Source: Truepera sp. (lineage in GTDB: Bacteria; Deinococcota; Deinococci; Deinococcales; Trueperaceae). Taken from it: 64,000 nt of DNA. The translations under genes and the position numbers were made by a program. The stretch lies in the NCBI GenBank assembly GCA_965218435.1, contig CBDCKW010000009.1, positions 896,001 through 960,000 on the forward strand, in the 5' to 3' direction. The notes below the pieces were generated by a model. It saw only the letters and a list, made by a program, of their open reading frames with translations, was not told the origin of the DNA and did no database searches. Shown here in pieces: positions 35,079 to 61,511 of this stretch. Numbering within the stretch: position 1 is the stretch's first letter; the number at the start of each line of letters is the position of its first letter.

Positions 35079-35300
35079 GGCAGGGTTCCGCCGCGAGTGT
35101 AGCAATGCGGCGCAGGACTGCCCAACTCTCTCACTGACGACGCGACGGCACAAACGACTAGAGGCAGGGTTCCCCGGCACGAGCGGAGCGATGTAGCGTG
35201 GACTGCCGTTTCGCGCTCACTGTAAACGCAGCGGTGCGGAGGCGGCCAACCGCCGCCCCCGCTAGGTTAAAGGCCCTAGTGGGCCTGACCTGGCACGCGG
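35079..35300. repeat. Two degenerate tandem hairpin units plus a branched hairpin
   Basis: GGCAGGGTTCC..TGTAGC..GGACTGCC..CTCACTG at 35079 and 35163 (period 84), then GC-rich stems to 35300. Confidence 0.7.
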
Positions 35301-37084: not shown

Positions 37085-38345
37085 TAGGGCCACCGCAAAG
37101 TCAGGAAGCGAGGAGTTTAAGGAGGTAGTCGCGGTCCCAGCCTGCGCGTAAGCGTTTGGCTTCGACACCTGCCTTGATGGTTTTGTTTCGTTTCAGCAGG
37201 TTCATGGCGAGATGTCTAAGCGCGACCCAGGTCGCTTGGGCGTTTTTGAGACGTGTGCGCGGGCGGTCTTCGTCAAAAGCCACATCCAACACCCAATGTA
37301 GGCCGTTTTCGATACCCCAGTGAAAGCGTACCGTTCGGAGAATACGCTCGGCATCGAGTGGCAAGCTGGTGATGAAGTAACGGCTGTGCGCGGTTGTGTG
37401 GTTGCCGACTGTACGGCTTGCGTAGACGCGCACGATGCTGGTCAAGTCGCGCCAGCTCTCACGTTCATGCAGCCACTCGGGAACCGCCAACACCCGGCAT
37501 TCGCGTGTTTCACTGCGTCCATGCCCCTGCTCAGTCGTTTGGGTGTGGCTATGTTCAAGCTCCCAGTTGACTTTATCGGCGTAGCCGAAGAAGCCCTTGA
37601 CATCTTCAAACAGCGTGGGGTGGTTGTCCTTGAGCGCCAGCAAGTAATGTACTAGGCCCACGAGGGCCGGGCTTTGCCCGTACTAGATGCTCTCGAACCG
37701 TCCACGCCACCTGCTTGTGTTCCCATAGCGTCTGTGGTGACAACCGCCCCGGCGGGGTTGACAACTTCCAACAGTTCGGGGATGACGGTGATCTCGTTTG
37801 TCTTCTCCGGCACCTGCTGTTGGGCTAAGACAACCTCAAGCGTCTTGGACAAAACGGCATGTTCGGCTTGCGCCTCCACCGGGCCTGTCCGCTGACTCGA
37901 CCATACACTTACCGTGTGCAGTGCCCCTTCTTTGCCAGCAGAGCCTCTAGCACTCTTGCCGTCAAGCGCCAGCACCTCATCCTCTCCTTCAGCCAACGCC
38001 GGTAGCACCAGCGTCTGGGTTCAAGACAAAAAACGCGACTGCCAAGCGTCTGGACTCAGCACTGCAAACACCCGCTCAAACGTGGCTTGACTCGGTATCC
38101 CAGAAGGTAACTTTAGAAAGCTACGCAACCACGTCTCGTGTGCTAAGGCGTACTGATGTATCTGGCTATACGTGTTCGCCCCGCAGATAACCGCCAAAAT
38201 GCTGATGCACACAATGTCTACTAGCTCATGCCGAATCCCACGGCGATCACGCGGGTCGGGTAAGTTGGCAAAGTGCTTGATCAGTTCAGGTAAGTCTCGT
38301 TCTGTCATCCACCAACTCTACGTTGCCGACTTTGCGGTTGCCCTG
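37085..38345 (-). mobile_element. ISAs1-family IS, transposase inactivated
   Basis: 18-bp IRs (C/T)AGGGC(A/C)ACCGCAAAGTC; DPR, DGKS, NEIT, DAMG, HWGIENGLHWVLDV motifs; internal TGA, frameshifts and two short insertions. Confidence 0.92.
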
Positions 38346-59352: not shown

Positions 59353-61511
59353 GTGGCGCTCATTGACACGGCTTACGAAACGAAAAAGCCTTGGAGGTTT
59401 TGCACCGCTGCGTTTCGCCCCTTGGGTTCAAAGCGTCGGCACTCGCAGGTGGCTACCCACAGGTGTGGGCGAGAGACGCCCCGATTACCTCGTTAGGCGC
59501 ACTTTTAACGGGCGACGCTGAGTTAATCGCGTGCGCTAGGGCTTCACTCGAGACCCTCAGCAGCAAACAGACCGACCTCGGCATGATTCACCTGAACGTC
59601 GATACGCGAACAGGCGAGGTGACCACCGAAAATGCCGGTGCGGTTGACGCGAACTTGTGGTTTATTATCGGGCACTTCTGTTATCTGAAGGCCACGGATG
59701 ACGAAGTGTTCGTCCGCGCTCAGTGGTCCAAGCTAACCCAAGCCCTGCTCTGGTTACGGTATCAAGACATGAACGACTGCGGCCTGTTAGAAGTCCCTGA
59801 AGCGGGAGACTGGGCCGACCTCTATTCAGTTCGCTATAACGTGCTGTACGTCGCAGCCCTGCGGATGATGGCGCAGCTGGCTGAGCGGTTGGGTGAACGA
59901 AACGTGGGGTATCTCGAGCGAGCAAAAGACGTTGCGTACAAACTTAACCTACTTTTTTGGCTCGACCGGCCCTGGGATGGGCGGGTGTTTGGAGAGCAGC
60001 TCGAGCACCTCAAGGCGATGCGGCTCGAGTGGTTTTTGCTTTACCAGAACACGGCAACGCTCACTGAAATACCTTACTACCCTAATTGCCAGTAAGACTC
60101 AGTCGAGGTTGGAGAGAACGAGCGCGAGTAAAGAGGCGTTGAGCTTGATAAAGAAGCCCTGATTGGTGCGAGCTCTGAGCCGTTGCGTGCCCATACTCTC
60201 TAGCTGGCTGTTGAGGGTTTCAATGCTTTTGCGGTAACGCTGAAGCGCGAAGAACTCAGCGAGTGTATTTTGCTCTTTCATATTCTTACGACGTGACGGC
60301 ACAAGCTTAACCCCGGTGTCTGCAACACTGTTATAGGCTTTATCAGCGTAGACACGTGCGCCTTGGGGTAAGGCGTAGCACAGCTCATGAACTGGTGTGA
60401 GGTCGTATAGCAGGCCCAAGAGGGCCGGGGCACTGCCCCCTATGCTGATGACTCGCTTCTAAAAGAGCAAAGCTTACCGGGATACCTGCAGGCGTACAGA
60501 CCAGATGCAGTCGCCAGCCGAAGAATTTCTCTTTTTTAGCAGCGCAGTAGCCGCAGAACGCCTTACCCCTGACTTTTTTGCAGCGTCTAGCGCGAACCCG
60601 CTTGCACACAGGCAAAGGCACGCTATCGATGATAAACACGTCGCCTTGTGTAAACAACACAGCAAGCAAACCAAGCAACCCTTCGAACCAAGCCGCTAGA
60701 GCATGGAGTCGTCGGTTATAACGTGACACGCTTAAACGCGGCACATAACCTGAGCGGACCATGACGCACAGGGCGCGTTCCTGATGGTTCTGAAAATACT
60801 TCGCTGCCACCACCGCAACGGTCAAAACTTCCGGATCGCTAACGGTGGCAAGCGGGTGACTGTAATGCCCGAGTTCTTCCAAGGTCTCCGCAATAACGCT
60901 ATATGCAGCTATGATAAAGCTGTCGTCCATGTGCCGTGCCTCCTCAAACTCATGTCCTCAAACATCAGTTTAGGAGTCACCCACATGGATGGCAACTGGT
61001 AATTACGGTCTTACTATCTGCCGTGGGTCGGATTTCGTGAATTCGGGCATACCTTCGACGGCTTCGGGAATACCCTGGCAATTTTGACCGGTGTCGCCGA
61101 TGAAGCGAAAAGCCAACGCATCTTGGATTACGCCCACGCATCAGGCGCAGATCATCCCTATCCGTTCAAAGCGTTTTCGCCGCCTATCTACCCTGGTGAG
61201 CGCGATTGGCGTGAGTATTTTCGCAGTCGTCATCTGAACTTGCCGCATCAGTACCATAACGGCGGCAGCTGGCCCTTTTTGGGTGGCTTTTACGTCGTCG
61301 CTCTCGTCAAGCTCAGGCCGAAGCGCAGCTTCACCTCCTGGCTGAAGCCGTTCGGCAGGGCGTTCACGGTGAGTGGGAATTTAACGAGTGGCATCACGGG
61401 GTTACGGGCAGGCCGATAGGCTATCCGCTGCAAGCATGGTCAGTGGGACTCTATGTTTACGCTTACCGAGCTTTGCATCAGGGAGAAGCCACGTTTTTCA
61501 ACCTAGGATAA
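59353..61511 (+). pseudogene. (alpha/alpha)6 glycoside hydrolase (GH100/amylo-1,6-glucosidase-like), split by IS982 and frameshifted
   Basis: YPQVWARD, DANLWF, DWAD, YHNGGSWPF, EW.HG..G.P.G...Q.WS. Confidence 0.8.
60079..61009 (-). mobile_element. IS982-family IS, transposase frameshifted
   Basis: 15-bp IRs ACC(C/G)TAATT(G/A)CCAGT; 6-bp duplication CTTACT (60073-78, 61010-15); IDSVP, FFGWRLH, ADKAY, RKSIET. Confidence 0.93.

Follow-up and report, generated by a model that had tools for sequence, protein, structure and literature searches.

A candidate family of SDR-like, ultra-short mobile elements with a conserved fold in Trueperaceae and some Thermaceae

Analysis of a 64,000-nt stretch of a Truepera sp. 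genome (assembly GCA_965218435.1, contig CBDCKW010000009.1, positions 896,001 to 960,000 of the forward strand; hereafter the window, in genome G000) revealed two copies of a folded element, here named U, each lying in a transposase gene. It is almost certain that U moves. Its copies are best read as a new family of ultra-short mobile elements that resemble SDRs in how they behave. The family is apparently undescribed so far, with its closest class already published; no description of it was found in open-access full text. Ever since cyanobacterial SDRs were first reported, how elements shorter than 50 nt move has, to our knowledge, lacked an answer. U makes this question accessible to study, with exact ends, a covariation-backed fold, dozens of paired alleles with and without the insert, and one copy in a type strain that is in culture. 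If nothing more, it accounts for many disrupted transposases in these genomes.

Two copies of U in the window and their empty sites

The preliminary description of the window had drawn attention to the word GTACTAG, seen twice at 37649-55 and 37680-86, and to two abutting mini-hairpins that lie between both words at 37649-37686 as a T-shaped junction, with an equivalent core in an IS982 gene at 60413. All of these are present in the sequence, the IS982 core at 60412-60429. In the window the core pattern matches twice with 0.00 expected, a count reached in 0/100 shuffles, which rules out a chance origin. The copies of U, their hosts and neighbouring features are as follows.

37649..37686, + strand: element U, type A, 38 nt, antisense to the ISAs1 transposase, 7 target bases replaced
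37649-52 / 37680-83: base stem P1 of type A, 4 bp
37653-54: linker of type A, 2 nt
37655-68: hairpin P2 of type A
37669-79: hairpin P3 of type A
37684-86: tail of type A, 3 nt
37086..38345, - strand: host ISAs1-family IS, dead (U, a 2-nt deletion and insert V)
37710..37720, - strand: independent second frameshift in the ISAs1 transposase, a 2-nt gap relative to the intact copy of G004; where it lies inside these coordinates is uncertain
37842..37892, + strand: micro-insertion V, 51 nt, in frame in the same ISAs1 transposase; a different small mobile family with a 36-nt core form elsewhere
35255..35292, - strand: probable degenerate relative of U with P1 and P2 but without P3 (weak covariance-model match, E 3.6); no empty homologue recovered
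60407..60446, + strand: type B copy of U, 40 nt, inserted cleanly into an IS982-family transposase
60078..61009, - strand: host IS982-family IS, with an identical copy on contig C5

At the site of the type A copy, ISAs1 relatives at about 74-77% identity (L109/L119 from G004 and L111 from G043) lack the insert and encode E-H-H-A-H-Y, and the net gap relative to them is 31 nt. The identical 38 nt, both GTACTAG words included, form a clean 38-bp gap in one IS3 and one IS982-like gene of G000. From these relatives and these clean gaps it follows that a 38-nt U replaced 7 target bases in the window ISAs1; since identical ends recur at unrelated sites, the GTACTAG repeat belongs to U and is not a target duplication. 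The unit is therefore 38 bp long and not 31 bp as first proposed, and the 7-bp target site duplication (TSD) implied by that shorter length is ruled out by the clean gaps, the EHHAHY relatives and the junction comparisons. Deleting 31 bp does yield a reading frame as long as that of the wild type, but the ISAs1 relatives encode E-H-H-A-H-Y at the site rather than E-H-L-V-H-Y. A one-base TSD was likewise rejected: read by eye across sites, the base flanking the element 5' disagrees with base three of the tail. The broader proposal of a structured mobile unit of about 30-40 bp without proper terminal inverted repeats has held up, with further copies found genome-wide and in relatives.

A second, identical copy of the window ISAs1-family IS lies at G000:C9:1482843-1484102, and both dead copies are flanked by 10-bp repeats. 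These repeats are swapped between the two inverted copies, a sign either of a misassembly or of an inversion of the intervening stretch of about 550 kb.

Type B differs from type A in P1, linker and tail and is alike in architecture. Its empty site is represented by a 40-nt offset in a G000 paralogue, and a contig from another study (run X3), about 92% identical, lacks exactly 40 nt at the window IS982 site. A second IS982 family, 78.6% identical to that of the window, holds an identical 40-nt U at the same base, and filled relatives are more distant from the window copy than the empty IS982 allele is. Nearby, 13 extra bases are present at window position 61304 in contigs of the best-matching run, at nearly full depth, and the window may have a local deletion there.

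Fold, ends and junctions of U

The identity of U lies in its fold. Its 37-41 nt comprise, in order, one strand of a 4-bp stem (P1), a 2-nt linker, a 5-bp hairpin (P2), a 4-5-bp hairpin (P3), the P1 partner and a 3-nt tail. In 26 aligned copies, 96.7% of the cells of this three-way junction are paired and 5/13 pairs are changed on both sides, the structure having been drawn from the same 26 sequences on which it was tested and two type-B rows being misaligned by one column. None of 500 shuffles paired as highly, and slid controls pair at most 49%. Compensatory changes are found in all three helices, and pairing is kept in seven P2, seven P3 and five P1 stem variants. A structural parser recovered 33 variants, in a list that includes one likely chance match and misses most 3-nt-loop forms; complementarity holds throughout, across five different P1 pairs and numerous P2 and P3 pairs. 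The terminal inverted repeat is only 4 bp long and is offset by the 3-nt tail. An alternative base helix, in which the four bases at the P2 foot (CTAG or AGCA) pair with the last four bases of U, is the MFE fold of both window copies; its linker and tail change jointly in several variants, and it is broken in other variants with GAG, TAT or AAG tails. A known RNA family was ruled out as the identity of U, a search of positions 37500-37800 giving no Rfam match at E<=5.

Usable empty homologues were available for 33/62 contexts. Neither gain nor loss of target was seen at 24/33 sites, a count made after leaving out L239, which had been aligned to a filled locus, and 9/33 junctions, the window ISAs1 site included, are off by 1-8 nt. 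U is inserted in both orientations in its hosts. Across 49 independent sites the target preference is weak and nearly symmetric, with no fixed position near the junction (8/57 site clusters with truncated, imprecise or homologous junctions were dropped beforehand), and U sites score at a median rank of about the top 13% under this consensus. Preference for hairpin targets in Trueperaceae was not above control (P 0.39-0.45), nor was palindromic pairing within target sites above permutation (P 0.41). In Thermaceae and in nested copies, U is nevertheless found in the loops of other small repeats.

Single bases are hit repeatedly in IS3 genes: four U variants share one base in five divergent copies, and three variants share another base in four copies, a recurrence for which the weak consensus cannot account. 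In the corresponding trees, a filled IS3 copy of G000 is sister to an empty one (100/98), and a clade of the two filled copies at the second IS3 site is rejected (p-AU 0.015, the group having been named after the first tree was viewed). Filled alleles are interleaved with empty ones both in the IS3 trees and in IS982. Repeated hot-spot insertion or repeated precise loss would each produce such scattered filled alleles, and recombination among ISs could contribute.

Distribution, host genes and the search for a mobiliser

Genome-wide, G000 contains 8 strict pattern matches to U and 14 copies at E<0.001 under a covariance model. With this model, 13/128 genomes of the family match, including the unpublished G248, whose loci were dropped and on which no other claim is made. 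In a phylum sample, 20/151 genomes match, 9 of them with hits below 1e-4 and the others marginal. An exact-pattern scan of one genome per species returned 50 loci, of which 49 lie in records named Meiothermus, Thermaceae, Truepera or Trueperaceae and the 50th, in Actinomadura, is chance-like; no cyanobacterial record is among them. The taxonomic range of U therefore covers Trueperaceae and some Thermaceae. A plasmid collection contains one U record, pMESIL01 of the cultured type strain Allomeiothermus silvanus DSM 9946, a phage collection contains none, and viral contigs gave 2 matches, neither a full U. Two further sets of matches were discarded as copies of U, namely 28 GTACTAGGGCC matches in G005, which are one repeated coding sequence, and about 14 hairpin-like matches in G000, which are a different repeated IS sequence. 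Long near-identical blocks shared by G000 contigs C2 and C5, and by C5:2493 and C5:245024, suggest segmental duplication or assembly redundancy, so that raw U copy numbers on C2 and C5 are inflated.

Based on reading of translations, 13/14 U copies in G000, or 9/10 independent sites, lie in transposase genes, whose IS family names are putative assignments from family motifs. Dispersed repeats make up 5-8% of G000, and long ORFs leave about 14% of C9 uncovered. The hosts of U are IS3, IS5, IS6, IS21, IS110, IS256, IS630, IS982, IS1595, ISAs1 and IS4-like genes. Comparison of 37 further sites with Pfam, using one frame per side, gave 19 transposase-type matches, one HicA and 17 sites with no match. 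In Thermaceae, U is extragenic and forms tandem and nested arrays between housekeeping genes, where none of 79 flanking ORFs has a transposase Pfam match. U also lies in frame in housekeeping genes, namely valS in G001 and RNase R in L146. At L042:11435-14212 and L043:1945-3444 in G001 and at L146, nested U arrays are in frame in these two genes, and an FAD oxidoreductase holds an in-frame tandem repeat unrelated to U.

One IS21 gene carries two U copies, and U-bearing IS3 ORFs are otherwise intact at about 15-25% divergence. In G005, 20 near-identical IS630 copies all contain U and their frame is not restored by its removal; all are frameshifted, which rules out an in-frame U, and no empty copy was found among the 40/45 candidates scored. 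Dead U-bearing hosts still multiply, and raw copy numbers therefore overstate the activity of U itself. Six IS200-type tnpA copies (G000:C5:105466 and five on C9) with identical scores all contain one in-frame TAG and represent another dead or read-through IS that multiplied. U also nests in itself and forms tandem arrays, with longer variants of about 56-200 nt.

A linked HUH or RT enzyme, suggested in the preliminary description, was searched for and none was found. No Y1, RAYT or RT gene is flanked by U among the loci fetched, one RT locus merely containing an IS that bears U, and end pairing in G000 and five relatives yielded no gene-sized element with U ends, only nested forms of 58-209 nt. 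PF01797 (Y1) matches 13/16 U-positive and 5/11 U-negative genomes, with no match in two U-bearing genomes, G196 (11 U copies, 97% complete) and G002. A RAYT query matches 8/27 genomes but 0/5 of the window's genus. PF00078 (RT) matches 6/16 U-positive genomes tested, and G000 has RT genes, with none in G005 (33 U matches), G085 or G196. The IS91-type PF04986 matches 0/27 genomes, a result that does not establish absence since control genomes are equally blank. RAYT, IS91 and RT genes do not track U. The ends of U are unlike those of the 12/22 Y1 (IS200) loci of G000 inspected by eye, and the Y1 loci fetched from other genomes contained no U when scanned for the motif.

Relation to known short elements and possible routes of movement

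SDRs are 21-27 nt long. As described by Elhai et al. in 2008, they are said to share a fold with compensatory changes, to nest in themselves and in other mobile elements, and to be lineage-restricted; we know of no mobiliser of SDRs. U resembles them in being a very small dispersed sequence, precisely inserted and known from both filled and empty sites, and in its conserved fold with compensatory changes and its nesting in itself and other mobile DNA. It differs from them in length (37-41 nt versus 21-27), in lineage (Deinococcota versus Nostocaceae), in having no fixed target word and in its strong tendency toward transposase genes. SDRs of Nostocaceae cyanobacteria are cited as very short dispersed mobile units in passages of PMC2884548 and PMC3116915, SDR5 inserts precisely into HIP1 according to a passage of PMC4390886, and a passage of PMC5861425 on HIP1-rich genomes places no SDR outside the Nostocaceae lineage.

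REP, REPIN and BIME sequences associated with RAYT (TnpA-REP) are given as 21-65 nt long with a GTAG/CGTC foot tetranucleotide in sections of PMC6006769, PMC3733652 and PMC3184786. U is like them in size range, GC-rich hairpins and a tetranucleotide at the hairpin foot and, in Thermaceae, in its extragenic mosaics and tandem clusters; it is unlike them in its base stem, which closes two hairpins where they have a single palindrome, and in its CTAG/AGCA foot instead of GTAG/CGTC. It is further set apart by being mostly intragenic in Trueperaceae, with no REPtron found and no RAYT match in the window's genus. Classical MITEs are about 100-440 bp long (PMC3184786), and U differs from them in its 4-bp inverted repeat, its lack of a TSD and its length, a third or less of theirs. 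U is like MITEs and the Rickettsia palindromic elements in being non-coding, dispersed and occasionally in frame in housekeeping genes. IS200/IS605 elements are not known to duplicate their target. U shares this property and possibly the pairing of a guide with a final tetranucleotide, but it has no conserved target tetra- or pentanucleotide 5' of the element, its ends are unlike those of the 12 inspected G000 IS200 loci, and both ends fit in under 41 nt. Unlike IS91-like derivatives, it has no fixed target tetranucleotide. Judged by the features that define them, U falls outside the MITEs, the REP/RAYT systems and the IS200/IS605 derivatives.

The reading that we tentatively favour, and to which we give slightly less than an even chance, is that U is a non-autonomous element moved as folded single-stranded DNA by a trans-acting nick-and-join enzyme. 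U would move as structured single-stranded DNA, being cut and rejoined by an enzyme, most plausibly of HUH type, that would not be encoded adjacent to it. The tetranucleotide at the P2 foot would pair with the last four bases, like the guide and final tetranucleotide at the right end of IS200/IS605. An inserted U kills the transposase gene, and the dead IS can still be copied in trans, carrying U with it. This model draws on the conservation of the fold, the lack of a TSD and the guide-like 3'-end pairing as in IS608/ISDra2, for which passages of PMC6006769 describe guide/final-tetranucleotide pairing and ssDNA circles. Against this model stands the lack of a conserved target tetranucleotide at U sites, unlike in IS200/IS605; the weak, near-symmetric target consensus would fit a dimer that works on double-stranded DNA. 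Also against it are the searches for a cognate enzyme (no U at the fetched Y1 loci, no RAYT match in the window's genus, PF01797 missing from G196 and G002 and present in 5/11 U-negative genomes), the lack of hairpin preference in Trueperaceae and the 9/33 inexact junctions. Neither an excised nor a circular form of U was observed. If U were moved by an as yet unknown nick-and-join enzyme, it would offer a scar-free insertion chemistry for very short cargo.

The concentration of U in transposase genes raises the alternative that insertion is directed at them, either as a host anti-transposon device or by a hyperparasite homing to conserved motifs. We consider this rather unlikely. The 9/10 independent G000 sites in IS genes contrast with the 5-8% of the genome taken up by dispersed repeats, the hosts span many families from IS3 to IS4-like, and the same-base recurrence in IS3 (five copies with four variants, four copies with three) exceeds what the consensus explains; yet U is extragenic in Thermaceae with no transposase match among the 79 flanking ORFs, selection alone favours the survival of insertions in IS genes, and no guide or targeting protein was found. 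As a defence it would be a poor one, since dead hosts keep multiplying. Equally doubtful in our view is the specific proposal that U and its sister family V are the products of an undescribed system targeting the transposase genes of any IS family, which would insert a folded 37-41-nt unit at fixed motif positions without a TSD or a known transposase. Were this true, the system would be either a device against transposons or a parasite preying on other parasites by a novel chemistry of integration, and true targeting behind the bias would be a new way of controlling IS load.

Movement as a mobile SDR-like unit through a structured RNA intermediate, by reverse splicing or RT-primed insertion, appears unlikely. 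The covariation suits RNA as much as single-stranded DNA, G000 has RT genes, and Elhai et al. in 2008 reportedly favoured RNA intermediates for SDRs, but PF00078 is found in only 6/16 U-positive genomes and in none of G005, G085 and G196, no promoter-linked master copy was seen, Rfam gave no match, and U lies in both orientations in its hosts. A further alternative takes U as an excisable switch or intron-like insert that is old in its IS hosts and precisely removed at the DNA or RNA level, the empty alleles being revertants. Clean insertion permits clean excision, the U-bearing IS3 ORFs are otherwise intact, the 40-nt U is identical in two IS982 families only 78.6% alike, and filled hosts multiply. 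Excision would nevertheless repair neither the window ISAs1, which has lost 7 nt and has a second frameshift, nor the G005 IS630; one IS21 gene has two U copies; and contigs assembled from the sample behind the window (X2) show no joint across U, contigs being prone to drop rare variants. We consider a switch quite unlikely. Least likely of these readings is capture of U by host repair at double-strand breaks, where end-joining, or copying templated by a further U, would take the place of a dedicated transposase. It could accommodate the loss of 1-8 target bases at some junctions, the lack of a co-occurring cognate enzyme and, through repair synthesis, the tandem and nested arrays, but the ends of U are almost invariant and most junctions exact, the same base is hit repeatedly as random breaks would not be, and the structure is conserved despite sequence change.

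Several other repeats are associated with U. A larger dispersed repeat contains U at L198, L204, L209, L210, L293, L307 and L310 (genomes G103, G183 and G196), and the long U variants in the L198-L310 set contain a 23-25-nt copy of the empty site of this larger repeat, resulting in several levels of reciprocal nesting. A 62-nt U variant (metagenome loci L221 and L237) has a 24-nt extra segment complementary to 7 and 5 bases flanking its IS630 target; this complementarity is reminiscent of a guide, and it fails at the variant's other sites, G000:C9:780611 and L230. In Thermaceae and G001, a third twin-hairpin three-way-junction repeat surrounds U, which lies in its loops (L365:2480-2565, L145 and L035). 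The long U variant at G000:C9:1206082-1206362 is interrupted by an element of ~250 bp with terminal inverted repeats. Family V has a 36-nt core together with 51-nt and nested forms, all of lengths divisible by three, and is inserted without a TSD at loci in the window, G005, G004, G000 and metagenomes. In L241, L298 and L366, three divergent copies of IS630, V recurs at the same codon, adjoining the catalytic Glu.
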